DNA of 64,000 bases from a virus (IMGVR_UViG_3300009285_016375:10508-74507); one strand, 5' to 3'; numbered from the stretch's first letter, positions 2,561 to 64,000 are shown. The notes: generated by a model from the letters alone, not told the origin. Made by a program: numbers and translations.

Positions 2561-2589
2561 AGGTTTCGAGTTTGGTTCAGGTTTCGAGT

Positions 2590-4762: not shown

Positions 4763-5042
4763 CCAGCGCTGGCCACGGCCAGGGCAACCGAGGGTTAGCG
4801 TGGACACCCAGCAACGAACTGCTGAACGCGGCGACGGTGGAAGGCGGACGGGAAGGGAGGTTAACGCCGGGCGTGATGGCCACCCTTTGACAACGCTTGC
4901 AGTTGCTGGATCAGGGCCCGCAGCTGCATTTGGACACTGGGCCACTGCTTGCCTACGCTGTACATGTCATCGACCAACTGACACACGACAGCCGCAGTGT
5001 ACAGCGCTTGCAATACCTTTTTTGTCTCGGCAGCGGTCACGG

Positions 5043-5686: not shown

Positions 5687-5701
5687 CAGAGGATGTCAAA
5701 A

Positions 5702-6049
5702 CTAAGGTGTTTGGGAAATGGCCGGCGGATAGTTCGGTTTGACAGCCGCGCTCGGCGAGCCCTGCCATTTCACCCAGAGGCCGGCGGCGCCGAAGAGCAG
5801 GGAAAGACAGGTGGCAATGACGGCCGCCTCGCGGCGGATGCCTGTGATTCTCTCTTCGTTGATCTTGCACAGGGTCGTGCCTTGGTCGCGCAGCCCCGCC
5901 AAGTCCTTCTGAATACCGCCTAAAGCCGAGTCGATAGAGTCCAGGCGGCGGTTCAGTTCCGTTGAGTGCGCGGAACAAAACACATCGCGATGGGCGCGCA
6001 GCGCCTCCTGAAAGGCCAGGCTCAGTTCTTCATTGAGCTGGGCGCTCAT
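5702..6049 (-). CDS. Coiled-coil protein with C-terminal transmembrane helix (lysis region)
   Basis: Heptad-like region then AVIATCLSLLFGAAGLW; ATGA overlap with the upstream gene. Confidence 0.55.
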   Translation of the reverse strand: MSAQLNEELSLAFQEALRAHRDVFCSAHSTELNRRLDSIDSALGGIQKDLAGLRDQGTTLCKINEERITGIRREAAVIATCLSLLFGAAGLWVKWQGSPSAAVKPNYPPAISQTP

Positions 6050-7374
6050 TGGTTGGTCCACCGAATCAGATCCCCTGGCAGGGTGCGGTTGCCCGACGCG
6101 TCCACCGCGCCGGCCCCGTATGAGTGCATGCGCTGGCCCCAGGGGCCGTCCAGCGCGAGCCAGTTGTCTCGGGCCTGGATGTGCGCGACGTTGTGCACCT
6201 CAAATACAAAGCCGGTCGCCGCCGAAGTGTTGGTGGGCGGCTGTGACCACCCGACAAAGTTCCTGGTGAATTCCAGGTGCTGCACGGGCTCCCGCGCCCA
6301 CAGGTAAACGCCATGCGGGGGATAGCGCCCCGGCCCGCGTGGCGCCAGCAAAAACACGTTGTCCTCGAGCACGGCGCGGCCCAGGGTAGCCTGGTGTGAG
6401 TGGGCCGAGCCTCCGAGCACCCACTGCACGGCATTGGCCGCGTTCACGAACCGATTCCGGCGCAGGGACACGGACTCGGTGCGCCAGGAATCCACATAGA
6501 ACCCGAAATCGCAGTTGATGGAAACACAGTCTTCGACGGCCGCGTCTTTGCAACCGAGGGCCGCGAAGGCTTTGGTGGGCGGGTACGTCGAGCCATCGAC
6601 CCGGCAGCGAGCGATGACAGCGTCGGTGGCCTGGCGCATGAGGCCATACGACCAGCTCGCGCCCACGAGGATAGCGCAGATGCCCGCCCGGTCGTCCGTG
6701 CGCGGGTCGCACTGTTCGACGACACAATCCTCGATGCGCAGCCCGGTGACATTGGAGCGGGTAATCGGGCAGCCGGCCACCAGCAAAAACGCTTCGGCGT
6801 TGGTCCGGGTGCCGCCATGGATGACGCGGACGCGGCGAATCGCGGCGTAGTCGCCCGACACGGCCACCGCGCAGGTGGAGACCGGGCGCGCCTCTGGACT
6901 AACGGCCAGGTCCACAGTCAAATCCGAGACGATGACAGAGTCGCCCGGGAGGTCTGTCAGCGTGGCCACGGCGATTCGGCCCGGGGCCGGATTGGGTTGG
7001 GGGCGGGCTTCCGGCGTGAGGGCTAAAACGGTTCGGTCCATGCCCTGCCCGATCAAACGCGCCCCTTTGGGCAAATGCCACTCGAGGGGGTGGCGCCACC
7101 ATGATTCGCGGTGCCCCCCGCCATACGTGATGAAGGTGGTGGTGCCCACGGCGTTGGTGCCCAGGTAAATGGTCGTGTGTTCCCGCAGCCGCTTCAGCAG
7201 CAAGGCGTCCAACTCGTCCGCAGACGACACCAGAAACGGATCCGCTTTGTAGCCGCCGCCTGTCTTGTGCGTGGCGTTGGTGACCCAATGCACGTAGTGG
7301 GTGTTGCGCGGGGCCGGCAGGGGGCCCTTGGGGGCCGCCGCGGTCAAGGCGAGCAAGGCAAAAAGTAAACTCAT
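6046..7374 (-). CDS. Secreted right-handed beta-helix (pectate-lyase-like) protein, possible depolymerase
   Basis: Signal peptide; RLIGQGMDRTVL, VIVSDLTVD, LRIEDCVVE, VSLRRNRF beta-helix repeats. Confidence 0.7.
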   Translation of the reverse strand: MSLLFALLALTAAAPKGPLPAPRNTHYVHWVTNATHKTGGGYKADPFLVSSADELDALLLKRLREHTTIYLGTNAVGTTTFITYGGGHRESWWRHPLEWHLPKGARLIGQGMDRTVLALTPEARPQPNPAPGRIAVATLTDLPGDSVIVSDLTVDLAVSPEARPVSTCAVAVSGDYAAIRRVRVIHGGTRTNAEAFLLVAGCPITRSNVTGLRIEDCVVEQCDPRTDDRAGICAILVGASWSYGLMRQATDAVIARCRVDGSTYPPTKAFAALGCKDAAVEDCVSINCDFGFYVDSWRTESVSLRRNRFVNAANAVQWVLGGSAHSHQATLGRAVLEDNVFLLAPRGPGRYPPHGVYLWAREPVQHLEFTRNFVGWSQPPTNTSAATGFVFEVHNVAHIQARDNWLALDGPWGQRMHSYGAGAVDASGNRTLPGDLIRWTNQ

Positions 7375-13913: not shown

Positions 13914-14906
13914 ATGGAAAATGGCGCAGAAAGTCAATCGTGGCCGGTGCTGGTGCCGCCCCAGATGTCGCACAAGCGGCTGGTGGCGCGCGGGCAAAGC
14001 CGCGTGAACACGAGATTGATGATGGCCATGCTTGACCGGCCGGTGAGCGGGGTGCGGAAAAACTGGCGGCAGGCGGCGGTCTATTCTCGGGCCCAGCAGC
14101 CCACCGCGGAACAGGTGCGGGAACTGGTGATGTGGGCGCAGCAGGTGAAACAATGGAGCCTGGGCATGCTGTCGGTGATGACGGGCATTCCGCCCCGGCG
14201 CTTGGGCGAGATTCGGAAAGGCGCCGCCGCCACCCTGCTGGAAACGCGGGTGTTATGGCTCTACTGGATGCTGGATCAGGCGCCGCAACTGCTCTACGAC
14301 CCGTGGCACCTGGCGACTTGGGGCCGGTATCACGGTTTGGATCTGCCGCGGCGCCGGAATTTTCAGGAGGCGCGGCGGGAAATGCTGGCTTTTTGCCTGG
14401 CGGAAAAGGAGACGGGCCGCCACCCGCACACGCCGATGGGTTTGGCCCGGCGCTTCAACATGTGCCTGGCGAGCGTGCGCCACGCGGCCAAAAAGGCCGG
14501 GCTGCGTTTGGCCGACGGGCGGGCGCGCAGCCACCAGATCAAGGCTGGCCGGCGGCCCGCGTTTCTGGACACGTGCAAACCCTATTTGTACATGGACTGG
14601 CGCAAAACGTATGCGCAACTGATGAAGGAGTGGGGGGTGAGCCAGACGCAGTTGATAAAAGCGCGGCAGTTTTACCTCAAGCTGTCGATCGAGAAGCTGC
14701 GCGGGCATTTTACGGCGGTGGGCAACGATCCCAAGGTGGTGGACGGGATTTTTGCACCGCGCCGCGGGGGTTGGGGCGGCGGGCGGGTGTTGCTGTGGGA
14801 GTACCGGCACCAGCGGGCGGAAGCGGAAAAAGCGGAAGCGGAAAAGAGCGCCCCGCCCACTGAGTGCACCGGGACAGAGGCCCCCTCGGTCACAGCGGCA
14901 CCGTGA
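13914..14906 (+). CDS. Hypothetical DNA-binding protein with HTH-like segments
   Basis: WSLGMLSVMTGIPPRRLGEI, PMGLARRFNMCLASVRHAA and YAQLMKEWGVSQTQL HTH-like helices; start after the promoter. Confidence 0.55.
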   Translation: MENGAESQSWPVLVPPQMSHKRLVARGQSRVNTRLMMAMLDRPVSGVRKNWRQAAVYSRAQQPTAEQVRELVMWAQQVKQWSLGMLSVMTGIPPRRLGEIRKGAAATLLETRVLWLYWMLDQAPQLLYDPWHLATWGRYHGLDLPRRRNFQEARREMLAFCLAEKETGRHPHTPMGLARRFNMCLASVRHAAKKAGLRLADGRARSHQIKAGRRPAFLDTCKPYLYMDWRKTYAQLMKEWGVSQTQLIKARQFYLKLSIEKLRGHFTAVGNDPKVVDGIFAPRRGGWGGGRVLLWEYRHQRAEAEKAEAEKSAPPTECTGTEAPSVTAAP

Positions 14907-16446
14907 CGATGCCGCCCGATTGCGGCAAGCGGACCAGCAAGGCTTCTTCCAGCTCCGCCCAGCTTTTGGCGGCAATGCAGTAGCGCAAAGCGTCCAGGCG
15001 GTGCTTGAGCGGGTCCGCAGCGGCCAGGCGGCCCTGCCGATTGAGGGCGATGTTGGAGAGGCATTCCCGCAGCAGTTCACAGCGGACATCCACGATAATG
15101 CGGTCCTCGTGCATCAGCCGGCGGAGGAGCTTCAGGCCGGGCATAACCTTGCCCTTGGGGGCGGCCTCCAGTTCGATGCGGCCCTCACTGTAGCGGTAGA
15201 TGGAGCGGGCTTCGAAAGCTTCCAAGCCTTCGCGCGGCGAGAAGGAGGAGGTGTCCGAGTAGTGGTGCCACAAGAGCCGTGTCCCGGCGCGTGCGGCCAG
15301 GGCGTCCATTTTCTCGAGCACCATTTCGGTGAAGTCCTTCAGGGAAATATTTTCCTTCAGGAGGACCAACTCGTCGTGGACTTTGAACAGGTAAATGGGT
15401 TCGTTGGCCGCCGCCGCCGAAATATCGACCGGCTCGATGAAGAGCACGGCCGGGTTGCGCCCGCCGTAGTCCCAGGCCGTGTTTAGCTCGACACAGCCGG
15501 GTTCGAGCAACAGGTATTCGTCGTCCTGAAAGCGACCGGGATGCGCGTCGTCGGGGATGTTGCCGATGCGGCCGAAGACATGGGCGGCGGGGCGCCAGAC
15601 GTCGGCAAAGTAACCGGCGCCGCTGGCCTTGACGTAAAGGCCGTAGTAGTAGCGAGCCAGGAGCACTGGGTCGCTGTAATAGGAGGAGTACACGTCGCGG
15701 CGGTCTTCAGGGGACAGGAAGGTGTTGTCGTCGATGTTGACGGTGATGACTTCGATTTGGCGGTAGAACTCCTGCAGCGCTTGCCGGGCCTGGCCCGTGA
15801 TATGATCGGGGATGGGCTGGTGCGGTTCCTCGAAGAAGAGCTGGTAGAACCAGGAATCTTTGCCTTCGGGAGGGGGGTTGACGTCCGCCAGGAACATGTA
15901 TTGGTCTGGCTGGATCGGGACGCCCGGCGGGGCCCGCAGGCATTGGCGGAGGATGTCGAAGGACTTGCGGCGGGTCAGCACTTCGTCCATTTGCGTGACC
16001 CAGAGGCCGGTGTAACGGCGGCCTTTGAAGCGCTGTTCCACCTCGTCTTCCACGGCCAAAGAATCGAGTTGGATGTAGGCTTTGCCAGCCGGGCCGAGAA
16101 TTTCGCAGTATAGCTTTTTGGTGAGCCCTTTCTGGCGGACGCGCTTTTTGTGGTCCTCCACCCACTCGACCAAGCCATCGGCGGCCCATTGGTCAATGAC
16201 GCCGCCGTCGCGGGTCAGGTCTTCCCAAGCGCCACCGTCGGCATTGAAGGTGTTGGTGGCCCCCAGGATGGAAAAGGAGGCCGGGCCGATGTCGCGGCAG
16301 TGTTTGAGGACGGCATGGGCGCACCCGATGGTTTTTCCGCATTTTCTCGGCCCGGAGAAGAGGCGGAAACGTTTGCGGGAATTGATGAGGCGGGCCTGCT
16401 TTTCAAATACGTCGAGGTAGTGCGAGCCGTCAGTTCTGAAAGGCAT
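14890..16446 (-). CDS. terL: Terminase large subunit
   Basis: Walker A SGPRKCGKT, FKGRRY, DVNPP coupling motif, DNTFLS, nuclease AWDYG and HRLDALRY. Confidence 0.92.
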   Translation of the reverse strand: MPFRTDGSHYLDVFEKQARLINSRKRFRLFSGPRKCGKTIGCAHAVLKHCRDIGPASFSILGATNTFNADGGAWEDLTRDGGVIDQWAADGLVEWVEDHKKRVRQKGLTKKLYCEILGPAGKAYIQLDSLAVEDEVEQRFKGRRYTGLWVTQMDEVLTRRKSFDILRQCLRAPPGVPIQPDQYMFLADVNPPPEGKDSWFYQLFFEEPHQPIPDHITGQARQALQEFYRQIEVITVNIDDNTFLSPEDRRDVYSSYYSDPVLLARYYYGLYVKASGAGYFADVWRPAAHVFGRIGNIPDDAHPGRFQDDEYLLLEPGCVELNTAWDYGGRNPAVLFIEPVDISAAAANEPIYLFKVHDELVLLKENISLKDFTEMVLEKMDALAARAGTRLLWHHYSDTSSFSPREGLEAFEARSIYRYSEGRIELEAAPKGKVMPGLKLLRRLMHEDRIIVDVRCELLRECLSNIALNRQGRLAAADPLKHRLDALRYCIAAKSWAELEEALLVRLPQSGGIVTVPL

Positions 16447-50468: not shown

Positions 50469-50792
50469 GCCACAGCATTCGCCAAGTTGTTTGGTTGCTG
50501 CGAGGCGGCGCTCGTGACCGAGCCGAGCCGATGGCAGGCGCCCACAGCAATAAAGTCGCTTGGTTGCTGCGAGCAGTTCGGCGCCAGTAAGGCGGATGCC
50601 GCGCAGCGTCCCCACAGCATTCACCAAGTTGTTTGGTTGCTGCGAGGACGGTTTCCGCTGAAATGTCATGGCCCAGCAGGTCAGCCCACAGCATTCGCCA
50701 AGTTGTTTGGTTGCTGCGAGGACGGAGCGGGCCTCGTCCACTTCGGGGTTCATTTGCCCACAGCATTCGCCAAGTTGTTTGGTTGCTGCGAG
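50469..50792 (-). CRISPR. CRISPR mini-array: 5 repeats, 4 spacers of 36-38 nt
   Basis: Repeat CCCACAGCATTCGCCAAGTTGTTTGGTTGCTGCGAG (36 nt, + strand) at 50469, 50541 (33-nt variant), 50611, 50685, 50757; unique spacers; the most degenerate copies are distal to the effector gene. Confidence 0.92.
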
Positions 50793-50912
50793 GGCGGTGC
50801 CTGGGCAGGCTGTATCCTCGCGCTTGCAAACCGCGTTCCGCGAGTGCCTGGGCCGGCAAGCGTGCCCAACCAGACTCGCGCTGCGCTTTGTGGTAGCGCA
50901 AAGAATTGATTA
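50793..50912 (-). ncRNA. Structured leader / candidate tracr- or scaffold-like RNA
   Basis: Hairpins CGCGAGT...ACTCGCG and TGCGCT...AGCGCA; 50815-50831 is partly complementary to the repeat. Confidence 0.5.
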
Positions 50913-52154
50913 TCACGGCTCGCGAGCGGTGTCAAGGCTTTCCACCGCACCGGCGCACTCGCAAGCCATCCCAAACTCACGCAGCTTGTTGGCCAGCATG
51001 ACCTGCAACTCGTGCCAGGGAAACTCAGGCAGATAACCGCCTTGAGTTTCATCATAGACAACCGTGTTGACGCCTTGGCGCTGAGCGAACTTGGCCAAGG
51101 CTGAGCAGGATTGCTGCATGAAAGATCGGACCCGACGATGATGCTTGGCCACTTGCGCCTGGCGGTATTCTCCCAACCGCGGCGGTTCGCCCAAGCGGAC
51201 CTCGTATTTTGAGTCGTCGGAAAGCCGGTCCAACTGCCGGCGATGAGCAGCGATCCAGCGGCGGACGTGATCAGCGTGCAAGCGCCACGGTTCCCGCCCT
51301 TCCACCTCGGCGATCCAGAAAGCATCCGGCGCCCTGCTGAGCACCAGCCGGCGCTGAACCGGGGCCGGGCGCTGCGGTTTGGGCAGCCACGCCACCAGCT
51401 TGACCATCACGTCGTAGCACTGGCGGGCGCCGCCACCGGCTGCCCGGTCTGGCAAGCCAGGCCGATGGGTGTTGCCAGAGACCCTTTTGCGGTAGAGGGC
51501 CAATTCGCCAGGCACGGCTTGGCCACTGACAATCTGCTCGAAGGCACCCAGTTGGCGGCGGAAGCCTGCCCCACCCCGCAACCGCAAACTGATGCGCTCG
51601 CCGCCCAAACGCACTGAGACCACGGGCACGCGTTCGGTGTCCGAGAGCCAGCGCGCTTGCCAGGAGGCGTTGTGGGCGGGGTAGGGAACCGGGTAACGGA
51701 ACCAGGGCAGGGTGGCGCTGCCCGACCAGATGGTGGCCCAGCGGGCGGAGTTGTATTTCTGTTGGGCCATTCGGGAAACGGCCGCCGCGGCTTGGCTTTC
51801 CATGTCCGGCCGCCGCTCACGAGCGATCTGATAGACGTTCAGCTTGGGGGCGGGCGGGAGCTTGGTCAGGCTGGGTGAGCGCACCACGTCGGCCTTGGCC
51901 AAGGCGGTCAGCACGGTGTTGGCCACTTCGGTGGCTTGAGCCCAGGCCGCGCCCAAGCGGGCGCGGAAGGCCGGCCAGTCCAGGCCGATGGGTGAAGCCA
52001 CCGGGAAGGTGACGGCCCGCAGAATGTAGGCATGGCGCCAACAGGTCTGGCACCAAGGCTGGTCCTGATGGCGTTTCCAGCCGGCGGGCACGCGCTGGCG
52101 CCCGGCTTTGGTGGGTTTGGCGGCGGCTTCCCGGCCGCACAGGTGGCATTTCAT
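50913..52154 (-). CDS. Nuclease-dead, C-terminally truncated TnpB/Cas12-like protein with N-terminal Zn ribbon
   Basis: Bridge-helix/RuvC-II-like HHRRVRSFMQQSCSALAKFAQRQGVNTVVYDE...FPWHELQVMLANKLREFG; RuvC-I Asp absent, no RuvC-III; adjacent to the CRISPR array. Confidence 0.78.
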   Translation of the reverse strand: MKCHLCGREAAAKPTKAGRQRVPAGWKRHQDQPWCQTCWRHAYILRAVTFPVASPIGLDWPAFRARLGAAWAQATEVANTVLTALAKADVVRSPSLTKLPPAPKLNVYQIARERRPDMESQAAAAVSRMAQQKYNSARWATIWSGSATLPWFRYPVPYPAHNASWQARWLSDTERVPVVSVRLGGERISLRLRGGAGFRRQLGAFEQIVSGQAVPGELALYRKRVSGNTHRPGLPDRAAGGGARQCYDVMVKLVAWLPKPQRPAPVQRRLVLSRAPDAFWIAEVEGREPWRLHADHVRRWIAAHRRQLDRLSDDSKYEVRLGEPPRLGEYRQAQVAKHHRRVRSFMQQSCSALAKFAQRQGVNTVVYDETQGGYLPEFPWHELQVMLANKLREFGMACECAGAVESLDTAREP

Positions 52155-53095
52155 AGCAGATGTCCGGTGAGTTTCTGCCGGCCTTCTTGGGCCAGGGGGG
52201 CGCGCACGTAATCCAGGCTCTGCCGCGGGCTGGCATGGCCCACTAAAGCAGCAATCTGTTCCGGGCTCAAGCCCGCCGCGCGGCAGTGCTCAATAAAGGT
52301 GGCCCGCAGATCGTGAATGTTCAGATGCAACAGGCCCAGTTCGGCGCGCAGTGCCCGGAATTGCAGGCGCAAGGCTTTGGCCGGCACGCGCCGCACCCGT
52401 TCCGGGAAGACGAAACGCTCGCCGTTGGCCCCGTTGGCCCGCGGGATGGCTTGCAGGATAACCGCCAGAGGCGGGGCCAATGGAATGACCACGCGCTGGT
52501 GCTGCCGTTTCTTGGTCCAGACCGTGATCGTCCCAGCCTCCAGATCCAGGCTGTCCCATTCCAGGCATTGGACGTCCGAGGGGAAGCGCAAGCCCGCGTG
52601 GACGCAGAGGGCCAAGGCCGCCTGCCAAAATTCCCAGCGTTCCAGCCGCTGCCCGGCTTGGGCGCACTGGCCGGCGGCTTGCTGGGCGCGAGCGCGATCT
52701 ATCCGGGCCTGGATGGCGGTGAAGAGGGCCTGCACCTGGGCCCGGCTGTAGGTGCCACGGGGGCGACTTTCGCGCAGGGCATGGGGCAGGGCCTCCAGGC
52801 GCAACTTGCGGAAGCGGGCGGGGTTGCCGTGCAGGAGGCCGGCGTCGCCGAGAAAATCGCACCAGTGTTGCAAGGCGGCCTTGCAGATCTGGCGGGTGGC
52901 CGCTTTCCAGGGCAGGGCGGGGTCCTCCAGGAAAGCGCGCACGCTGGGTTTTGTGATGTCCGAGAGCCGGGACGGCTGGGTGCGAGCCAGATACCAGCCG
53001 ACGTAGTTGGTGTAGATTTGGGCGGTGGAGGCGCGCACGTCGCCTTCCTGTTGCAGGTGGTCGGTCCAGCGTGCTAGGGCGTTCAGGGGTTTCAT
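52151..53095 (-). CDS. Tyrosine recombinase/integrase (not IntI type)
   Basis: Core-binding domain (ASTAQIY...GNPA) and full catalytic set GLR, K, HDLR, VGH, Y; start moved to MKPLN. Confidence 0.93.
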   Translation of the reverse strand: MKPLNALARWTDHLQQEGDVRASTAQIYTNYVGWYLARTQPSRLSDITKPSVRAFLEDPALPWKAATRQICKAALQHWCDFLGDAGLLHGNPARFRKLRLEALPHALRESRPRGTYSRAQVQALFTAIQARIDRARAQQAAGQCAQAGQRLERWEFWQAALALCVHAGLRFPSDVQCLEWDSLDLEAGTITVWTKKRQHQRVVIPLAPPLAVILQAIPRANGANGERFVFPERVRRVPAKALRLQFRALRAELGLLHLNIHDLRATFIEHCRAAGLSPEQIAALVGHASPRQSLDYVRAPLAQEGRQKLTGHLL

Positions 53096-53102: not shown

Positions 53103-53122
53103 GCTGAGCTGGGTCGTTCGGC
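53103..53122 (+). other. attC-like right half-site at the attI-equivalent position
   Basis: GCTGAGC-TGGGTC-GTTCGGC, identical to the right arm of 55493-55579, 7 nt upstream of the integrase ATG. Confidence 0.7.
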
Positions 53123-53123
53123 G

Positions 53124-53381
53124 TCAGATAATCCTCGCGCAGGCTTCGGACTCCGCGAGTGCGACAGCATCGTCAAGCGAGTCAGGTGCGGGAAAGACAC
53201 CTACTCTCAGGAAGTTACCTTCCCGCGCGTACCAGTGTCCGGTTTTGACGGTTTTGCCGTCCGCAGGCTCCCAGCCGGGGAACGTATTGCGAATCGCATC
53301 ACGCGGGGTCATTGCCGCAATGGTCTTGCTTTCTTGCACATGTCCGATCCGGTAGTCTTGCAGTTGCACTATGTATGTCAT
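53124..53381 (-). CDS. Cassette ORF, hypothetical
   Basis: MTYIVQLQDY...; stop abuts the attC half-site. Confidence 0.6.
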   Translation of the reverse strand: MTYIVQLQDYRIGHVQESKTIAAMTPRDAIRNTFPGWEPADGKTVKTGHWYAREGNFLRVGVFPAPDSLDDAVALAESEACARII

Positions 53382-53399
53382 ATTGTCTTTCCATTGCCC

Positions 53400-53487
53400 G
53401 CCAAACAAGACACTGGAGCGGACGGCGGGGGGCCGCTTCAGCGAGCGGGGCGTTACGGGCGCCGCCGCTCAGTTCGGGTCGTTCGGC
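53400..53487 (+). repeat. attC-like site A
   Basis: GCCAAAC...ACTGGAGCGG...CCGCTCAGT...GTTCGGC, extra base in L''; 65 bp identical to site B. Confidence 0.85.
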
Positions 53488-53488
53488 G

Positions 53489-53692
53489 TCACACCTTGCC
53501 ATGCTTCCCGGACTCGTCGGAGATGTCAGCGTTGACCGCTGCACTCAGATTGCTGTAGCTGGGCAAGCGGACCGCGCCCGGTCCATCCGGTATCGGAGAC
53601 AGGTAGTGCGTTGTCCCGTCCTCGTAATCGCGGCGGATGATTTTCCGGGAAAAGTGGTTTAGCTGTCCGGTTTCGGTGTCGGTATGAGTCAT
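53489..53692 (-). CDS. Cassette ORF, hypothetical
   Basis: 67 aa, lies exactly between sites A and B with a purine-rich RBS region. Confidence 0.65.
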   Translation of the reverse strand: MTHTDTETGQLNHFSRKIIRRDYEDGTTHYLSPIPDGPGAVRLPSYSNLSAAVNADISDESGKHGKV

Positions 53693-53711
53693 TTTTCTTT
53701 TTCTTTCCCCC

Positions 53712-53799
53712 GCCGAACAAGGTCACTGGAGCGGACGGCGGGGGGCCGCTTCAGCGAGCGGGGCGTTACGGGCGCCGCCGCTCAGTTCTGTCCTTATGC
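53712..53799 (+). repeat. attC-like site B (R' G mutated to C)
   Basis: GCCGAAC...ACTGGAGCGG...CCGCTCAGT...CTTATGC. Confidence 0.8.
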
Positions 53800-54029
53800 T
53801 GATCGGCGTCCATCGCGGCGGCGATCAGCTTGAGGTCTGCGTGGTGAATTTGCCTCGCTGCAAGTTCCTTGCGTTCCCTGGGTCTCAGGGGTCGCGGCTC
53901 GCACAGCGATCCGTCGGGGCGCACGGGGTAGGCTGTGCCCCCGTCTTCCGGTGTCACGATCGTTGCCCATTCACCACCGGCAAAGTGCGTCCATCCTTCT
54001 TTGAATGTTGGTGCGTAAAGATTTAGCAT
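53766..54029 (-). CDS. Cassette ORF, hypothetical
   Basis: ATG lies in R'' of site C; C-terminus reads into site B. Confidence 0.6.
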   Translation of the reverse strand: MLNLYAPTFKEGWTHFAGGEWATIVTPEDGGTAYPVRPDGSLCEPRPLRPRERKELAARQIHHADLKLIAAAMDADQHKDRTERRRP

Positions 54030-54116
54030 AACAAGTCGATGCAGGCAACGGCGGGTGTGGCCTGCGGTGTCAATCGTGCGTCTCAGGTCCGCCGTGCCTG
54101 ATCTCGGTCGTTAGCC
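54026..54116 (+). repeat. attC-like site C (canonical)
   Basis: GCATAAC-AAGTC-GATGCAGGCA...TGCCTGATC-TCGGTC-GTTAGCC. Confidence 0.9.
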
Positions 54117-54326
54117 GACTACCTCTTTCATGGCCTTGAGAAGCGTTGAACCTTTTCCTTCGCAGCCGTCCGCTGCCCATATTTCAACGGCGGGCTGGCC
54201 CATGTTCGGCCAGCCCTTAATTGTGACCGTTGTTCCTTCGGCGGTCTTTCCATTGCACCACGCGAAGAAGTCGGCTAACAAGGCGCTGGGAGTTGCGGGC
54301 TTCGTTGGCGCGTTTTTCTTTTTCAT
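54111..54326 (-). CDS. Cassette ORF containing a residual attC left arm
   Basis: Stop TAA lies in R' of site C; GGCTAACAAGGCGCTG at 54273 is inside the frame. Confidence 0.6.
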   Translation of the reverse strand: MKKKNAPTKPATPSALLADFFAWCNGKTAEGTTVTIKGWPNMGQPAVEIWAADGCEGKGSTLLKAMKEVVG

Positions 54327-54369
54327 AGTTTCTTATTGATCTTTCATTTTTCTCTTTCTTGCCGGGAGC

Positions 54370-54472
54370 GCCTAGTTCGGCGCTCCAGCGAACGGGAGAG
54401 AGCCGTCACGGGTTTGGGTTTTGGGTTGTCTCAACGGCGGCTCTTTCCCGTCGTTGATCTCTGTCGTTCGGC
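54370..54472 (+). repeat. attC-like site E (degenerate R'')
   Basis: GCTCCAGCGAACGGGAGAGAGCCG...CGGCTCTTTCCCGTCGTTGATC-TCTGTC-GTTCGGC. Confidence 0.75.
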
Positions 54473-54643
54473 GCCATTTGCCTTGAGTCGCTCGACATAT
54501 TTTGCCAGCGACTCATACACTTCAGCTTCGAGCACGATCCGGTTGCGCGGGTCGTCAGGGTAGCCGTTTTCAGTCGTGAGCACGAGGCCGAAGCCGTCGA
54601 AGTCCACATGCACACTGTCACCGAGGTATTGCTTGTTGTTCAT
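54431..54643 (-). CDS. Cassette ORF, conserved small phage protein
   Basis: YLGDSVHVDFDG...LTTENG...NRIVLEAEV motif; ends inside site E. Confidence 0.7.
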   Translation of the reverse strand: MNNKQYLGDSVHVDFDGFGLVLTTENGYPDDPRNRIVLEAEVYESLAKYVERLKANGAERQRSTTGKSRR

Positions 54644-54692
54644 ATCACTCTGTCGTTAGCGCATCGGTTCAAGGCCGCACTCGGCTCCACCG

Positions 54693-55061
54693 TCATAGCA
54701 TCGCGCCGGTTAGAGATTCATTCAGGCCGATTTCTTGGCGCGTGATTACTGCCGTAGCTTCATCGGCGCGACGGGTGTGCTTCCACCTTGTTTCGCAGGA
54801 CTCACACTGCGCCCAGAGTATCGCGCCCCAGTCAGAGTGCCAGGCCCGCGAGCCGCAGGTTGGGCAGGCGAACACGTGGACGCATAACAAGACGCCACGG
54901 ACTACCGTCGCTGAGCTTGGGTCGTTCTGGCGCAGAGCGGCGCGCTTGGCTGTTCGGGCGCGCACCATTGCCCGCGCTTGGGCTTTCGTGAGCTTGCGGC
55001 GGGACTTCTGACCGCCCTTGCGCCCGATGTCCGCCAGATACTTTCGTGCTTCCGGGTTCAT
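54693..55061 (-). CDS. Fusion ORF: basic GRKGG module, translated attC remnant, Zn ribbon
   Basis: IGRKGGQKSRR then QNDPSSATVVRGVLLC (attC remnant 54882-54930) then CPTC...CESC. Confidence 0.6.
   Translation of the reverse strand: MNPEARKYLADIGRKGGQKSRRKLTKAQARAMVRARTAKRAALRQNDPSSATVVRGVLLCVHVFACPTCGSRAWHSDWGAILWAQCESCETRWKHTRRADEATAVITRQEIGLNESLTGAML
54882..54930 (+). repeat. Short degenerate attC-like site inside an ORF
   Basis: GCATAAC...GTCGCTGAGC-TTGGGTC-GTTCTGG. Confidence 0.6.
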
Positions 55062-55186
55062 GCTTTGATGGCGTATTCGCCGTCAGCGCGGACTTCAAAC
55101 CAGCGGCGGACACCGCCACGTTTCACGGCGGGCGTGTAGATGGTCGCCGTCTTGTAGTAGCGGACTTCCCCGCCGAACAAGGTCAC
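55058..55186 (-). CDS. 42-aa ORF starting inside attC-like site F
   Basis: GTG at 55186 overlaps the upstream stop (GTGA); its stop overlaps the next ATG (ATGA); MTLFGGEVRYYKTATIY... Confidence 0.55.
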   Translation of the reverse strand: MTLFGGEVRYYKTATIYTPAVKRGGVRRWFEVRADGEYAIKA

Positions 55187-55264
55187 TGGAGCGGACGGCG
55201 GGGGGCCGCTTCAGGTTGATGGGGTTGCTCAGTGGCCCGCCGCCGCTGAGTTCTGTCGTTCGGC
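55172..55264 (+). repeat. attC-like site F
   Basis: GCCGAAC...ACTGGAGCGG...CCGCTGAGT-TCTGTC-GTTCGGC; left ~45 bp identical to site B. Confidence 0.85.
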
Positions 55265-55584
55265 GTCACTCGCTCCCGGCATGTTCGTTCGTCTTTACGG
55301 TCGCCACCGAACGGGATGCTGTCTTCCCAGTCCACCGCTATTTGATCGAGCTTTTGCACTTCATGCGCGCAAACTGCGGACGGGCCGCTGCCATCTGTTC
55401 CGGCACAGCGTTCCGCTTCTTCTTCCGCCAGTCGTTGGTTATCGGCAACTATCATCAACTCATACTCGACGGTTACACGCCAGAGACGTAACGCCGAACC
55501 AGGCGCTCCAGCCAATGACTGTCCCGCTGGGCGGTCGGACAATTCGGGAGTCTGGGATGGCTGAGCTGGGTCGTTCGGCGTCAC
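55183..55584 (-). CDS. Cassette ORF that reads through two attC-like sites
   Basis: N-terminal 30 aa come from site G, C-terminal 27 aa from site F; the cargo has no stop of its own. Confidence 0.6.
   Translation of the reverse strand: MTPNDPAQPSQTPELSDRPAGQSLAGAPGSALRLWRVTVEYELMIVADNQRLAEEEAERCAGTDGSGPSAVCAHEVQKLDQIAVDWEDSIPFGGDRKDERTCRERVTPNDRTQRRRATEQPHQPEAAPRRPLQ
55493..55579 (+). repeat. attC-like site G
   Basis: GCCGAAC-CAGGC-GCTCCAGCCA...TGGCTGAGC-TGGGTC-GTTCGGC. Confidence 0.88.
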
Positions 55585-55775
55585 AGTCCGTAGTCATAGC
55601 TTTCGCCGGTTTTCGGGCCGCGCGTGCAGCGCAACACGAAGGTGTAGTTTCGACCGAGCTTGCGCTCGATGTCGCGCGCTGCTGCCGAGTTGAGGAACCG
55701 CTGCGGTTGCGTCGTCTCGTGAACGAGTTGACCGCGATAGGTGATCTGCCAGTGGTTTCGCATTTTGGTTTTCAT
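55581..55775 (-). CDS. Hypothetical protein
   Basis: MKTKMRNHWQITY...; stop abuts site G. Confidence 0.55.
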   Translation of the reverse strand: MKTKMRNHWQITYRGQLVHETTQPQRFLNSAAARDIERKLGRNYTFVLRCTRGPKTGESYDYGL

Positions 55776-55855
55776 GGTTAGCTGCCTCAGTCCACCGCGT
55801 AGAGACACGCTTGGCCGGCTGGTATCGGTTCAAGGCCGCACATTTTGTCTTTGGG

Positions 55856-56194
55856 TTAGTCAGTCCTCGACCTGATGAACTGAGCCCGTGCGGCGGGCGT
55901 GTTCTCCAGGTTTTCCCGGCCCAACCAGGCGAAATAATCCGCAATGGACACCAGCACGAACTCCACTCGCGCCCCGCGCTTGCGCAACTCGCGGGCAAAC
56001 GCCTGATTGATCAGCTCCTGCTCGCGCAAGCTCAAGTCCGGCTCCTCGGACTTGAGGAAGCGGAGCGTGTCCTCGTCGTCGTAAGCGGCCACCCGCACCC
56101 GCACCCGCACCCCGGGCAATTGGTGGGGCAGGTCGAGTTGCGCGCAGATCTGCGCGGCCCGAATGCGAGCTTGTTTCCAGGTCATGTTTGTCAT
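55856..56194 (-). CDS. Hypothetical protein
   Basis: 112-aa ORF in the minus-strand operon. Confidence 0.6.
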   Translation of the reverse strand: MTNMTWKQARIRAAQICAQLDLPHQLPGVRVRVRVAAYDDEDTLRFLKSEEPDLSLREQELINQAFARELRKRGARVEFVLVSIADYFAWLGRENLENTPAARAQFIRSRTD

Positions 56195-56463
56195 TTTACC
56201 GCCGGCGCCTGCGGGAACAACCCGCCGCAGGCATTGGCCGTGAGGAACAGGCCCACCTCGACCGGCAACCCCACAAACCCCATCACGCCCGAGGGATCCT
56301 CGGGCTGATGGACATGGACCGTCAAGTTCCCGTCAGCCACCAGGCTGCAGGCGCCGGCCAGGTCGTAACCGTGCCGGGCGCTTGCGTCCCGGATTTTCGC
56401 GGCCAGGTTGTGGGCCGCCACGGCAAAATCCCGTTGCTCGGCGCTCAGCTCGATCTCTTCCAT
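56191..56463 (-). CDS. Hypothetical protein
   Basis: MEEIELSAEQ... preceded by AAAGAAGAA; ATGA overlap downstream; start uncertain. Confidence 0.5.
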   Translation of the reverse strand: MEEIELSAEQRDFAVAAHNLAAKIRDASARHGYDLAGACSLVADGNLTVHVHQPEDPSGVMGFVGLPVEVGLFLTANACGGLFPQAPAVK

Positions 56464-56584
56464 CAACCGTTCTTCTTTGCACATACCTTTATGTTTCTCT
56501 TGCGACTTTCCGGGTCGCGTCCGGGGCAGCTTCATTGCTCCGTTGGACCGCCGCACATTGCGGCGGCCCCGTCGGAAAAATGAG

Positions 56585-57091
56585 TCAGGAAAGGGGCCGC
56601 GCTCCGACGAGCGCGGAAAACTTGTCACTGCGCCAGCCGTCTGGCTGGCCCCGGCTGCAATCGCCGGCATTTTCGCCGGGGCCCAGGAACACGACCCGCT
56701 CGGCGCCCGCCCGGCGGCAGTGCGCCGCGGCTGTCTCGGGTGTAGGCCAGGAGCCAGGCAGGGTGCGGGTGCCCCCGTGAATGTCGAGCGCGCACGTGAA
56801 CCGCCCGTTCTCCGCGCGCACCACAGCGATGCGCCCATAAACCCAGCGATGCTCGGGGGGCGGCGCGAAAAGGGCATCCGCCAGCAGCGGCCCCAGTTCG
56901 GGCAGCCGGCGCGCCAGGAACTCGGTCGGGTCCGGCACGTGTTGCGCCAGCCAGGCCGTCAATTCGGGCAGTTTTTGGGCCAGCGTACTGGCCCGGCTCT
57001 GCCAGCGATTCGCCCGGCCTGGCCCGGCCCAGAACGTGACGTGCAACAGCCGGCCCGACGGCGCTCGTGTCGATGCGACCTTGACGCTCAT
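56585..57091 (-). CDS. Hypothetical protein
   Basis: ATGA-coupled to the VWA gene. Confidence 0.55.
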   Translation of the reverse strand: MSVKVASTRAPSGRLLHVTFWAGPGRANRWQSRASTLAQKLPELTAWLAQHVPDPTEFLARRLPELGPLLADALFAPPPEHRWVYGRIAVVRAENGRFTCALDIHGGTRTLPGSWPTPETAAAHCRRAGAERVVFLGPGENAGDCSRGQPDGWRSDKFSALVGARPLS

Positions 57092-58347
57092 GCGGCCTCC
57101 TCGATTTTGACCGTGCGCCCGAACGGCGCCCGGCGGTCGCTAGTGGTCACCCAGAGCACCGGGTAACCCGGCTCCTCAGCCGGGAACTCCCCGTCCAAAT
57201 CCGTCAGGTACACCAGACAGACCGGCGGCACCGCCTTCTCCGCCAACAACCCGAACACCGGCCTGAAATCCGTTCCGCCGCCGCCCGTCGCCTGCCGCTC
57301 AATCGCGTCGCCCGGGCAGTACTCGCGCACCTGCTGCACGACCGCGTCGCAGCAGATGTCCACGAGTGCCTCGGGCTGGAGCTCGTCCAGGCACCACTGC
57401 TGCTCCGCGCGGAACGCGGCCAACAAGTGCTCGCCGATGCTGCCGGACGTGTCCACGGCGAACACGATCCGCCCCGCCCGCTCCGAATGGAGCGCGGGCA
57501 GAATGAATTCCGCGTCCGCGTAGCGCGTGTTCGGCCGGCACCAGGACCAATCGTCCTGGGCGCGCTCCCGGAGGAAATCCCGGAGCACCGCGCGCCAGTC
57601 CACCCTGGGCCGGGTCAACTCGCGGACCAACCGCACCAGGCTGGCTGGCACATGCCCGCGGCCCTTGGCCAGTTCGGCCGCCTGCTGGGCGGCCTGCGCC
57701 CACTCCTGCCGGAGCTGCTCCGCCTCGGCCTGGCCGTCCTGGCTGGGCTGCTCCATCTCACCCGGGGAGGGCTGGCCATCGCCGGGCTGATCGCCCGCGA
57801 CCGGATCGGCCTGAGCCGACTGAGCCGACTGATTACCGGCCCCCGCGCCGGCCTCCCCGCTCTCACCGTCGCCGTCGCCGCTGTCTTCAGCCGGCGGCGG
57901 CACCTCGGCCAGGAGCGTGCGGTAAATGGCCTCGACCGCGAGGCCCTTAAACCGGGCCTCAACCGGCTCCGCGCCGGGCGCGGCGGGAAACGTCTCGGCG
58001 CCGGCCTCCTCGAGGATCGCGCGCGCCTCCTGGTCACAGGCCCGGTTCCAGACCCGCCAATCCGCGGCGGCCGGGGCGCGCCAGATGTGCCCGAGTCCCA
58101 TGTGGAGGACCTGCTCACAGAGCACGGATGTGATCTGTGCGTCGCTCAGCGACGCGCAATACTCCGGGTTGACCCGCAGGTCAACCCCATCCGAGGAGAA
58201 TGTCTCCACGGCGGGTGACTCCGACACTGTGAGCCGGAGTGCCAGGCAGGCGAAAAACGGCTCGAACCGGACCAGCCGGCTGAGCTGGCGCTCGATCCGA
58301 ACCACCTGACTGGTGGCCGGGGTCGGCTTGAGGAGGGGTGCATTCAT
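57088..58347 (-). CDS. Metallopeptidase-like plus VWA-like protein (DUF2201 type)
   Basis: EPFFACLA, SDG.DL..NP, EQVLH (degenerate HExxH), WNRACD, VDWR..LR, AVDTSGSI, GGGGTDFRPVF, YLTDL. Confidence 0.88.
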   Translation of the reverse strand: MNAPLLKPTPATSQVVRIERQLSRLVRFEPFFACLALRLTVSESPAVETFSSDGVDLRVNPEYCASLSDAQITSVLCEQVLHMGLGHIWRAPAAADWRVWNRACDQEARAILEEAGAETFPAAPGAEPVEARFKGLAVEAIYRTLLAEVPPPAEDSGDGDGESGEAGAGAGNQSAQSAQADPVAGDQPGDGQPSPGEMEQPSQDGQAEAEQLRQEWAQAAQQAAELAKGRGHVPASLVRLVRELTRPRVDWRAVLRDFLRERAQDDWSWCRPNTRYADAEFILPALHSERAGRIVFAVDTSGSIGEHLLAAFRAEQQWCLDELQPEALVDICCDAVVQQVREYCPGDAIERQATGGGGTDFRPVFGLLAEKAVPPVCLVYLTDLDGEFPAEEPGYPVLWVTTSDRRAPFGRTVKIEEAA

Positions 58348-58673
58348 GCGGCCACCTCCGTGAGCGCTGCCGCGACCAGCTTCGCCTGGTCGCGTTCCGA
58401 GAGAACTATCTCGGAATTTCGGCTGGTGTGGATCACCACACAGCCGGCGGCCGTCTGCCGGACGGCCGGGTCGGACCAGCGCCGCGGCGGATACCCGTTC
58501 CATTGTCCCTTGCGGTTTTTCACCCACTCCATCTGATCAATGGCGTGGTCAGCCCCGACGGCCCACTCCGCGTGCGCGGAGATGTAGCAGCTCCGCACAG
58601 CCTGGTGGTACTGCTCCGCCAGCCGGAGCAGCTCCATGTCCGCCATCGGCGGGAAAATAGCGGGGGTGCTCAC
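58344..58673 (-). CDS. Hypothetical protein
   Basis: GTGA/ATGA overlaps with both neighbours. Confidence 0.6.
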   Translation of the reverse strand: MSTPAIFPPMADMELLRLAEQYHQAVRSCYISAHAEWAVGADHAIDQMEWVKNRKGQWNGYPPRRWSDPAVRQTAAGCVVIHTSRNSEIVLSERDQAKLVAAALTEVAA

Positions 58674-59659
58674 AGGATCTCCTTTCCCTCGGCGCTGGCC
58701 CAACGGATGAAGCCCGCGCTGCGGGCGATGGATTTGTCGCGCCGCAGCGCGTCGCGCACGGCGAGCACGCGGAACGGCTGGGGCATCCGCCCCAGATAGC
58801 GGAGCGCAGAGTCAATGCTCTGCGCGTCCATCCGGGCACCGAGCCCGGTGGCCATGAGGTAGCGGAGCGACGGTTTCTCCGGGACGGCGGTGCCGTCCGG
58901 ATCGAGCAGGGCCGCGTCGATTGACGGCGCGGAGTCGGCCAACTCGAGGTAGCCGATCAACTCCGTCGCCGCGCCCTGGCCCACGGCCCCGGCGATCAGC
59001 TCGAAGTCGCGGACCCCTCGCGCCAGGCGCCGCCCGACCGACGCCCACGTCCGCGGGCAGGGGGAATTGGTGAGATCCCGAGTCGGGGTGAACGCGCTGA
59101 GCAGTTCCGGGCGATCCCGGAGGAAGGCGACCAGGACCGCCGGCATGTTGCCGGGGCCCAGGGCCCACTCGGACCAATCGTCGATGTGGGTCTCCAGCCG
59201 GACGATGCTGTCCCAGCGCGATTTGACCGGCTCGATCAGGCCGGTCACACCCGCCTGTTGCCGGGCGTCGTTCGTCGCGCCAACAAACGTCACTTGCTCG
59301 GGGAGCACGTGCCCATTGATCCGCCGGCCCAACAGGAGCTGCATGAGCCCCTTCTGAACGCTCTCGGATGCCTGCCCGAGATCGTCCACGAACCAGACCG
59401 TCGGGCGCGTGGATGTGATGGCGTACCAGGTATCCCCGAACGGGAGGAAGGTCGCGTGGTCCCCGTCGCGCGCCGGGAACCCCTTGAAATCCGTCGGGTC
59501 AGCCACCGCAGGGTGGCTGACGATCAGGTCTGCACCGATGTCGGTGCAGACCGACCGGATGATGGCGGTCTTGCCGATTCCCGGCTGACCGACCACCAGG
59601 ATTTGCTCCTGGTGGGAGATGGCGTCCGCCAGGACGCCGGCCAGGGCGGCGGGTCTCAC
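58670..59659 (-). CDS. MoxR-like AAA+ ATPase
   Basis: GQPGIGKT, DPTDFKGFP, WFVDDL, GATN, PCPRTW. Confidence 0.9.
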   Translation of the reverse strand: MRPAALAGVLADAISHQEQILVVGQPGIGKTAIIRSVCTDIGADLIVSHPAVADPTDFKGFPARDGDHATFLPFGDTWYAITSTRPTVWFVDDLGQASESVQKGLMQLLLGRRINGHVLPEQVTFVGATNDARQQAGVTGLIEPVKSRWDSIVRLETHIDDWSEWALGPGNMPAVLVAFLRDRPELLSAFTPTRDLTNSPCPRTWASVGRRLARGVRDFELIAGAVGQGAATELIGYLELADSAPSIDAALLDPDGTAVPEKPSLRYLMATGLGARMDAQSIDSALRYLGRMPQPFRVLAVRDALRRDKSIARSAGFIRWASAEGKEIL

Positions 59660-59772
59660 GAGGTCACCGCCTTCCGGCTAGGAGTTGTTGTTGTTGTCTT
59701 CATGCGTTTTGTTTTTCGTGGGCCGTTCGCGTTGGCCCGTTTTTTGGGTTTTGGTCGCTTGGTCGAGCGGCG

Positions 59773-59970
59773 TCATGCTCGCTCGACACCATTTACGTCG
59801 GACCATCCGCTACCATCGAACGCCTCGCCGGGCGGCACGACTACGGCACGCCGGCCCTTCTTCCGCTCTTTTGCGGCTGCGCGATTGGCGGCGGATTCGG
59901 ACGAGTAGGACGAGTCCACATCGTTTCCCACTATCAGACTGTAACGGTCATTGTTTATGAGTGTTGCCAT
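59773..59970 (-). CDS. Hypothetical protein
   Basis: 65 aa with AAAGGGAAAT RBS right after site H. Confidence 0.6.
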   Translation of the reverse strand: MATLINNDRYSLIVGNDVDSSYSSESAANRAAAKERKKGRRAVVVPPGEAFDGSGWSDVNGVERA

Positions 59971-59989
59971 ATTTCCCTTTCTGCCGGAC

Positions 59990-60063
59990 GCCGAACAGGC
60001 GCCCCAGCGACGGGGACATGCCGTTCAGCGGCATGTCCCCGTCGCTGAGCTTGGTCGTTCGAG
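59990..60063 (+). repeat. attC-like site H
   Basis: GCCGAAC, perfect 19-bp stem CAGCGACGGGGACATGCCG/CGGCATGTCCCCGTCGCTG, then AGC-TTGGTC-GTTCGAG. Confidence 0.85.
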
Positions 60064-60330
60064 CGTCATATCAGGCTTCACCCGTCGAGTGCCGAACAGC
60101 CTCTCCATCTCACCGATGTCCTCCTCAGCCTCAAGCTTTGCGAGCACGGCGCGATTTTCCTGCTCGTGTCCAGCGATCAACAGGATTTCCCTAAAGTTTG
60201 ACCGGGCGACCTCTCCATTTATGCCGTCCTTGAAATTTGCGGCGCACCACAAACATCCCGGCCCACAGGCTGCATATTCCGACAGCCTCAGCCGTCCACC
60301 GCACCACACGCATGAGTTTGTTCTGGTCAT
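60025..60330 (-). CDS. Cassette ORF with Zn-finger-like cysteines
   Basis: MTRTNSCVWC...CLWC; C-terminus reads into site H. Confidence 0.5.
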   Translation of the reverse strand: MTRTNSCVWCGGRLRLSEYAACGPGCLWCAANFKDGINGEVARSNFREILLIAGHEQENRAVLAKLEAEEDIGEMERLFGTRRVKPDMTLERPSSATGTCR

Positions 60331-60349
60331 GTTGACTTTCTTCCGGGAC

Positions 60350-60475
60350 GCCGAACCAGGTCGCTGCACCGAACAGCCGACCCGCTCTGCGATTCACGGT
60401 CTTTGGTTCATTGGTTGTTTTGTTTGCGCTCACCGCTCGCCGCCGGTCGGCTGTCGGTGAGCTTCATCGTTCGGC
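60350..60475 (+). repeat. attC-like site I
   Basis: GCCGAAC...GCTGCACCGAACAGCCGACC...GGTCGGCTGTCGGTGAGC-TTCATC-GTTCGGC. Confidence 0.88.
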
Positions 60476-60476
60476 G

Positions 60477-60647
60477 TCAATGCAGCACGCGGACCACAAG
60501 GCGGCCGTCCTCTGTGCGGATTGTGACGGGTTGCGGATTTGGCAACCCATCGGGGTCATTGGTCTGCTTGACGTACGCAATCGCGTCCTCGTCACAGGAG
60601 GCTTCGATTTTGGCAGTGCTGTTCGGGTATTCCAGGTTATATGTCAT
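60477..60647 (-). CDS. 56-aa cassette ORF (below the ORF-track cutoff)
   Basis: MTYNLEYPNSTAKIEASCDEDAIAYV...; stop abuts site I; purine-rich RBS region. Confidence 0.6.
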   Translation of the reverse strand: MTYNLEYPNSTAKIEASCDEDAIAYVKQTNDPDGLPNPQPVTIRTEDGRLVVRVLH

Positions 60648-60666
60648 TTGCGTTTTTCTTTCCCCC

Positions 60667-60704
60667 GCCGAACCAGGCGCCCCAGCGACGGGAGAGAGCC
60701 GTCA
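60667..60704 (+). repeat. attC-like left half-site J
   Basis: GCCGAAC-CAGGC-GCCCCAGCGACGGGAGAGAGCCGTCA, shared with sites E and H; right arm missing. Confidence 0.7.
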
Positions 60705-63348: not shown

Positions 63349-63667
63349 GCACCGCCAGATATTAGGGCTCGATTCAGATGATGAACGATATACTGACCAT
63401 ATAAACCATAATGGTCTTGATAATCGGCTTAAAAATCTTCGGGTCGTAACTCCCGCCCAGAATACTTATAATCGCAGACCATATGGTCGTAGCAAATTTA
63501 AGGGTGTTTGTTGGCATAAAGGTAATGAATTATGGGGTGCCAATATTCGTTTTAAGGGAAGGGTGTATTGTCTTGGCTATTACAAAGACGAGAAAGAGGC
63601 AGCTTTAGCTTATAATAAGAAGGCCAAAGAGTTTTTTGGGGTATATGCTTATTTGAATAAGCTCTAG
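63347..63667 (+). CDS. HNH endonuclease with AP2 domain, probably N-terminally truncated
   Basis: MHRQI, DHINHNGLDNR..NLR, SKFKGV, LGYY..EKEAALAYNKKA.EFFG.YA.LN. Confidence 0.88.
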   Translation: MHRQILGLDSDDERYTDHINHNGLDNRLKNLRVVTPAQNTYNRRPYGRSKFKGVCWHKGNELWGANIRFKGRVYCLGYYKDEKEAALAYNKKAKEFFGVYAYLNKL

Positions 63668-63679
63668 TACCTATCATAG

Positions 63680-64000
63680 TTACTTGTCAATCATAAATTT
63701 GAGCTTTTTCTCCATTTCCTCAAAATTGACTTTATATAGCCTTTGGGTACGCTCTTTTAGCTCCTTAGCTCGTTCGGGGTATTTATTATTGAACCATTCC
63801 ACCATGAACATCGGATCTTTGTGCCAAGATGGTTGTTTTGCATTCCAGCCGCCCGTATGGTGAGTAAAACACAGGCAGAGAATATTATCTAAATCCGCTG
63901 ACATGTTCCGATAGGTATTAGTGCCGTAAATATGAGAACCATGGGTCTTAACATTCGGTTCTCTCTGGCCACAGTATTCGCAGATAAAATTGGCTCTTTG
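63680..64000 (-). CDS. NinG-like HNH nuclease, partial (5' end outside the window)
   Basis: Open frame from the window end: CEYCG...HGSHI...DLDNILCLCFTHH. Confidence 0.7.
   Translation of the reverse strand, partial: QRANFICEYCGQREPNVKTHGSHIYGTNTYRNMSADLDNILCLCFTHHTGGWNAKQPSWHKDPMFMVEWFNNKYPERAKELKERTQRLYKVNFEEMEKKLKFMIDK

Follow-up and report, generated by a model that had tools for sequence, protein, structure and literature searches.

Two arrays of integron-type gene cassettes were found in a phage genome of about 76 kb, represented by the IMG/VR record IMGVR_UViG_3300009285_016375 (74,507 bp). The 64,000-nucleotide (nt) stretch analyzed here, called the window, spans bases 10508–74507 of this record; positions marked "record" are counted along the full record, and all others along the window. 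Array 2 occupies 53103–60704, and array 1 occupies record bases 1–7322 plus about 2 kb more. Together the arrays hold roughly 28 sites in ~17 kb, about a fifth of the genome. Integrons are seen as bacterial devices, and their logic is that cassettes enter in one orientation behind one promoter. The arrays described here are probably genuine integron-type cassettes carried by a phage, most of them with the gene on the bottom strand of the attC recombination site, and by the usual definition they would be a cluster of attC sites lacking integron integrases (CALIN; at least two attC sites with no integron integrase nearby). There were 19 full sites and no IntI in the record. They do not make a complete integron: no IntI with its extra domain was present, and the genes were mostly not on the attC top strand behind a cassette promoter (Pc).

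The repeated elements in 53103–60704 consisted of an R'' box (mostly GCCGAAC), a 5-nt spacer, an L'' box carrying an extra base (left arm), a variable center, an L' box, a 6-nt spacer and an R' box (mostly GTTCGGC). Record bases 1–7322, which lie outside the window, were filled with the same elements, many of them with the textbook cores GTCTAAC and GTTAGGC. An alignment of 18 full sites from the record, in which AAC and TT were invariant and the L helix was 91.7% paired with compensatory changes in five of its seven pairs, was used to build a covariance model (R1). The named attC structure outscored all 500 shuffles and every slid control. R1 detected 19 full sites in the record at E < 1e-7, eight in the window and 11 in the 10.5 kb preceding it, as well as five partial or degenerate sites; all were on the + strand. 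Besides its full sites, the window held two short or degenerate sites and two half sites, again on the + strand. No R1 match better than E 0.2 was obtained in the other 53 kb of the window; a weak minus-strand match was seen at 51135–51205 (14 bits, E 0.21). A pattern for the attC center gave four chance matches in the genome contig collection and zero in the viral contig collection. The first-pass annotation had reported a series of attC-like elements sharing one polarity in this region, and they were recovered at the positions it gave, eight as full sites by R1, two as short or degenerate sites and two as half sites by eye, with every R1 site on the same strand. The elements of array 2 are listed below.

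53103–53122, + strand: lone right half site (L', 6-nt spacer, R' GTTCGGC), recognized by eye; R1 weak, 11.9 bits
53400–53487, + strand: attC site; R1 72.3 bits, E 2e-17; bottom-strand fold
53712–53799, + strand: attC site with R' CTTATGC; R1 68.9 bits
54026–54116, + strand: attC site; R1 68.7 bits
54273–54310, + strand: degenerate left half of an attC; R1 16.4 bits, E 0.044
54370–54472, + strand: attC site with its R''-plus-spacer segment inverted, from the sequence; R1 39 bits, E 3e-8
54882–54930, + strand: short, 49-nt attC-like site; R1 18.7 bits, E 0.01
55172–55264, + strand: attC site; R1 86.2 bits; fold
55493–55579, + strand: attC site; R1 63.5 bits; fold
59990–60063, + strand: attC site with a perfect 19-bp central stem; R1 42.2 bits; fold z-score −8.4
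60350–60475, + strand: attC site; R1 75.3 bits; bottom-strand bulge geometry matching aadA1
60667–60704, + strand: truncated left half of an attC at the end of array 2, recognized by eye; resembles the left half of the site at 54370

The half site at 53103–53122 lies where an attI would be expected and is identical to the right end of the site at 55560–55579. The sites at 53400 and 53712 have identical centers (65-nt identity). The degenerate half at 54273–54310 falls within the minus-strand open reading frame (ORF) 54111–54326, and its R'' is complementary to the R' at 54110. The R''-plus-spacer segment at 54369–54381 (13 nt) reads as its reverse complement, which resembles a local inversion at the recombination core.

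Polarity was determined by reference to a single attC, the one downstream of aadA1 in plasmid R100, read on the coding strand. Like the + strand here, this site is asymmetric: its left spacer has 5 nt, its right spacer 6 nt, and the additional base is in L''. R1 found it in R100 with exact ends and on the aadA1 coding strand (28.1 bits, E 2.7e-5), the sole significant match in 50 kb of the plasmid, and the + strand of the window is therefore the canonical top strand. When the minus strands were folded as DNA, the R boxes formed a stem of 7 bp, the spacer stayed unpaired, and the L stem had two bulges of one base each, both on its 3' arm and separated by 6 bp; the bottom strand of the aadA1 attC folded likewise, with two bulges. 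The first-pass annotation had tied its attC assignment to bottom strands that fold with extrahelical bases, and folds of this kind were obtained. The choice of the bottom strand is determined directly by where the extrahelical bases lie (Nivina et al., NAR 2016, PMC5027507), and here their position marks the minus strand. The model matches and folds indicate that the elements are genuine integron-type attC sites of one polarity.

The cassettes also bore traces of movement. A cassette unit on the + (top) strand would begin with the TT of the preceding R', continue through the gene and its attC, and end with the G of that attC's R'. Across the record, R' boxes matched the R'' of the next site at 3.4 of 4 variable bases (up to 12/12 when extended) compared with 2.7 of 4 for their own R''; complementarity to the next R'' is the expected residue of circular excision and reinsertion of single cassettes. 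Three self-complementary cassette ends pointed out in the first-pass annotation were all present. Two metagenome contigs, L032 and L033, carried sequence identical to the left end of the record. A 370-nt unit (record 1054–1423) recurred at a second array position in L032 with 370/370 identical bases, and the flanks of this second copy were unrelated, the left one as far as the G of GTT and the right one from directly after GTT; L033 held both copies within one array. A second unit, encoding an MT-A70 methylase (record 1422–2065), recurred in the IMG/VR contigs G002 (72% nt identity) and G005 (60%), where its flanks were at background identity (54–56%). Differences in gene content between relatives thus ended at GTT cores, as had been anticipated, and the breakpoints indicate that cassettes have moved as units ending there. 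Both mobile units consisted, on the + strand, of the TT of the left R', the gene, its own attC and the G of the right R', which independently confirms the polarity. The earlier proposal that the phage shuffles its early accessory genes by attC recombination was borne out in part, in that units had moved and ended at GTT. No paralogous cassettes were found within the record, and a comparison of the array 2 cassettes with 10 array phages found none in common at the DNA level, only matches of attC length.

The genes in the arrays ran mostly against the polarity of the sites. In the window, the small minus-strand ORFs had a conserved purine-rich leader ahead of the ATG and a stop codon directly past R'. 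Their minus-strand translations were protein-like, and the + frames were rich in Arg, Cys, and Ser; no Pfam family matched the window cassette proteins. A strand classifier based on amino-acid composition was trained on backbone genes, where it was positive for 95% of sense and 24% of antisense pieces, and it assigned 15 cassettes to the minus strand and four to the plus strand, one of the plus calls being an artefact of a two-gene cassette. All of the roughly 10 cassette genes in the window were on the bottom strand. Over the whole record the proportion was ~16 of 19 (about 85%), and the cassettes of canonical orientation (ORFs at record 35–286, 1057–1341 and about 6517–6920) all lay outside the window, so the earlier statement that every ORF is on the bottom strand applies to 53103–60704 but not to the record. 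The same classifier counted 36 reversed and 15 same-strand genes in other phage arrays, a noisy count. The genes of array 2 are given below; the first eight cassette genes came from the ORF list, translation and the composition classifier, and the last three from the ORF list and the classifier.

53124–53381, minus strand: cassette gene
53489–53692, minus strand: cassette gene
53766–54029, minus strand: cassette gene
54111–54326, minus strand: cassette gene
54431–54643, minus strand: cassette gene
54693–55061, minus strand: cassette gene
about 55266–55460, minus strand: cassette gene
55581–55775, minus strand: cassette gene
59773–59970, minus strand: cassette gene
60025–60330, minus strand: cassette gene
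60477–60647, minus strand: cassette gene
55856–59659, minus strand: five-gene block between two attC sites, of backbone-like composition
57088–58347, minus strand: DUF2201 metallopeptidase/VWA protein (Pfam), within the five-gene block
58670–59659, minus strand: AAA ATPase (Pfam), within the five-gene block

The G+C content at third codon positions (GC3) was 0.83–0.88 in the five-gene block compared with 0.6–0.7 in the cassettes. A cassette encodes, at 54915–55061, a small basic protein that begins MNPEARKYL and bears a KGG-type motif; its homologue in the IMG/VR phage contig G003 (L030, 1304–1457) lies directly upstream of the IntI gene of that phage. An 18-nt motif beginning ATCGGTTCAAGG occurred at 54664–54681 and 55824–55841, outside any attC, both copies just downstream (in the minus-strand sense) of a small gene; possible roles are those of a terminator, a processing site or a further recognition site.

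The methylase gene, on the minus strand, gave a full-length MT-A70 match (1e-27) with no start codon between R'' and the domain, which places the predicted start in the attC loop. All three methylase homologues were built alike, with the R'' box translated within a conserved short motif. In the DnaB gene (record 2960–5476; minus strand, with a LAGLIDADG intein), the attC at record 5414–5506 holds the first ATG of the ORF within its loop, in-frame downstream starts also being possible, and a truncated attC at record 2879 adjoins the 3' end of the gene. With these two ends, the helicase gene appears to be laid out like a 2.5-kb cassette.

Next to the left end of array 2 lies a recombinase gene.

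52151–53095, minus strand: tyrosine recombinase, Xer-like and very divergent (Pfam PF00589, 4e-14; NCBIfam XerA, 1.7e-9, far below cut-off)

The distance from its ATG is 7 nt to the half site and 20 nt to the first GTT core. The IntI model TIGR02249 matched neither this protein nor anything else in the 74.5-kb record. BLASTP against IntI1 gave E 0.058, and outside the catalytic box the protein did not resemble the G003 IntI. Between the lysine hairpin and the HxLR motif there are ~65 aa in the recombinase compared with ~104 in IntI1 and the G003 IntI; the recombinase is thus without the roughly 40-aa extra domain of IntI. No homologue was found in the 10 other array-bearing phages, none at 1e-10 in 5.8 billion proteins, and no close relatives in the viral contig collection searched. 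A sequence search of the PDB returned only TAL-effector repeats and was set aside as an artefact of one short repeated stretch: residues 271–299 resemble one TAL-effector repeat, and the PDB scores were inflated by summing over repeats. The stop codon of the recombinase overlaps (ATGA) the start of a 413-aa gene at 50469–52154, which had no Pfam or NCBIfam match.

True integron integrases were encoded by two related array phages, G001 (306.7 bits to TIGR02249, above the curated cut-off) and G003 (231.4 bits, extra domain present). In G003, 22 nt separate the IntI ATG from the first R box, and the cassette genes are oriented towards IntI. We read this as an array-end layout common to G003 and the present phage, with a different gene here apparently in the place of the integrase. 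The comparison made earlier with a real integron therefore holds for geometry only, but not for the recombinase, which is not IntI by any of the above measures. Just past the last full attC of G003 (L030, 880–930), a near-consensus sigma-70 promoter (TTGACA, 17 nt, TACAAT) points towards two small genes and IntI.

The Xer-like protein could still be the cassette recombinase, which would make the array a non-IntI integron in which a different tyrosine recombinase acts on attC-type sites. It has the position and orientation of intI, down to a distance of 20 nt compared with 22 nt in G003, and the place of attI is taken by a lone L'-R' simple site. Given adjacency, however, this position and orientation would arise by chance about 1 time in 4. 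The protein is without the domain that reads the bulged bases and is dissimilar to both IntI proteins outside the catalytic box, no homologue was found in the 10 other array phages or, at E 1e-10, in the protein collection, and the same type of site co-occurs with a true IntI elsewhere. We consider this explanation unlikely.

The first-pass annotation had placed the array in a phage early region. Both arrays lie in long minus-strand (leftward) early operons, array 1 surrounding DnaB and array 2 the AAA ATPase and DUF2201 block. Other phage-type genes in the record encode a tail-spike-like protein (1505 aa), an ERF recombinase, an exonuclease, a RuvC-type resolvase, DUF5131, the DnaB helicase with its intein, HNH endonucleases, and the large terminase, for which no close relatives were found in the viral contig collection searched. 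Searches for tRNA genes and Rfam families found none.

14890–16446, minus strand: large terminase, a phage-type gene
63358–64000, no strand assigned: low-GC block with two HNH homing endonuclease genes (PHROGs HNH, 1.7e-32; junction comparison)

The record ends on the right in a cut gene within this low-GC block. The block is inserted exactly at the junction between backbone and array 1 and is absent from the otherwise identical contig L032; judged from this comparison, it is a presence/absence polymorphism of a putative homing element. L032 joins record 73374–73864 to record 1–588 through ~1.5 kb of further cassettes, and the record thus closes on itself at ~76 kb, consistent with the CheckV estimate of 98% completeness. 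The phage genome is circular or permuted and roughly 76 kb long. When IMG/VR was scanned with the L'-R' motif and R1 was then run on the contigs found, 13 other viral contigs held 70 R1 sites, on one strand per locus. Three of the 13 were complete with direct terminal repeats, and their arrays were away from their ends. The hallmark genes, the joined ends and the complete phages with the same type of site all agree with the early-region location.

A prophage inside a host integron was the explanation initially favored. The arrays would then be host DNA, belonging to a bacterial chromosomal integron in which an attC served as the attachment site and around which the record borders were drawn too generously. 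IMG/VR labels the record "provirus", the arrays lie towards both of its ends, and the half site abuts the integrase gene as an attR would. This explanation was overturned by the terminal-repeat-complete phages, which bear same-type arrays away from their ends, and by L032, in which both record ends are joined across further cassettes. DnaB, the AAA/DUF2201 block and the HNH genes are inside or beyond the arrays, and no host-type gene was seen. We now regard a host origin as very improbable.

Apart from the provirus label, several observations weigh against the reading of the arrays as integron cassettes with mostly reversed genes. The record has no IntI, and none could be demonstrated for the host. 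A GC-phase test that was right for 60 of 62 backbone genes called only 12 of the 20 low-GC3 cassettes minus, and for the small orphan ORFs the strand was assigned from composition and ORF layout. The starts inside attC loops are read from the sequence alone. The polarity calibration rests on one reference attC, and the secondary marks of polarity do not favor the minus strand. In 263 mobile-integron sites, the bottom strand was more stable, with an excess of G:T pairs and a purine skew (Nivina et al. 2016, PMC5027507). In contrast, none of these rules was seen here: the mean difference in folding energy was ~0, G:T pairs averaged 1.6 on the + strand compared with 0.6 on the minus strand, and GC skew was slightly positive on the + strand.

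The absence of these bottom-strand marks from the minus strand would fit a misread polarity, in which the + strand is the one recombined and the minus-strand genes have an ordinary orientation. However, bulge position, spacer asymmetry and the orientation of the model match all agree with aadA1, and both mobile units have the attC at their + strand 3' end, whichever strand bears the gene; a polarity error is accordingly given very little weight. The last alternative, intergenic hairpin repeats such as terminators or repetitive extragenic palindrome (REP)-like elements that merely resemble attC, would suit elements that sit between the genes of one operon and fold into hairpins, with modest fold z-scores for most sites, but was rejected as hardly credible, as it fails to explain the cross-detection of the real aadA1 attC, the pairing of R' with the next R'' and the GTT-precise duplication and sharing of units.

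The reading of the arrays as phage-borne cassettes suggests how they may work. An IntI-type integrase would excise and insert the units, working on the bottom (minus) strand in its folded form. The likeliest enzyme, because the related array phages G001 and G003 encode a true IntI, would be an IntI supplied in trans by the host or a co-resident phage. The adjacent Xer-like recombinase would not be the cassette enzyme but would serve as the integrase of the phage itself or belong to a separate module. In ~85% of the units, the attC precedes a bottom-strand gene and would be transcribed in the phage early message, supplying the start codon in several cases. The genes would be expressed by read-through from phage early promoters, each attC forming the 5' leader of its own gene, and selection may have favored the reversed build because the genes depend for their expression on phage transcription instead of a Pc promoter.

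Compared with classical integrons (class 1 intI1/attI1/attC and the Vibrio cholerae chromosomal integron), the arrays share the R''/L''/L'/R' arrangement, the bottom-strand bulges, the unpaired central spacer, the G|TT crossover, complementary cassette ends and related families of sites within one array. They differ in having no IntI and no Pc-driven top-strand expression, in being interleaved with phage core genes, and in the strand of the genes, which is mostly the recombinogenic one, with transcription running towards the recombinase gene. The phage integrons G001 and G003 are closer: the attC type is the same, some arms are nearly identical to sites here, the cassette genes are co-directional towards the recombinase, and ~20 nt separate the recombinase ATG from the first R box, whereas the enzyme in that place is a true IntI there and the unrelated Xer-like protein here.

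Clusters of attC sites in phages have already been published. Integrons and 17 CALINs, each with at least two sites, were found in phages, their attC sites recombine with IntI1, two of the phage arrays were described as having the orientation typical of bacteria, and phages were proposed to trade cassettes through host integrases (Qi, Rajabal, Ghaly, Tetu, Gillings, Front Microbiol 2023, PMC9892861). Like those CALINs, the arrays here combine attC sites and cassettes in a phage genome without a neighboring IntI and carry a DNA methyltransferase gene as cargo; unlike them, they have ~28 sites in ~17 kb, mostly reversed genes, starts in attC loops and a cassette-like replicative helicase. No mention of genes antisense to attC polarity was found in Qi et al. 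2023 (PMC9892861), and no description of the mirrored layout was found in the searchable literature.

A broader proposal, which we consider possible rather than probable, is that phages keep a mirror-image cassette class of their own. The attC would stand ahead of the gene, and a single strand would serve for both transcription and recombination. Phage early promoters would drive the gene, whose start would in some cases fall in the attC loop; a bacterial integron that captured such a cassette would hold its gene in antisense, unexpressed. Phages and their hosts would thus use the same IntI machinery but maintain separate gene pools of opposite orientation, and even core genes such as the replicative helicase may have taken this format.

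The data suggest that genuine cassettes of reversed build take up about a fifth of this phage genome, and the sequences give direct evidence of units that move at the canonical crossover point and are common to several phages, some with an integron integrase of their own. If the arrangement is general, integron recombination would rank among the main ways in which phages reshuffle accessory and anti-defence genes, the orphan methylase being an example from this genome; phage cassettes would be misannotated in surveys that take genes to be on the top strand; and the orientation rule of integrons would be usable in reverse.

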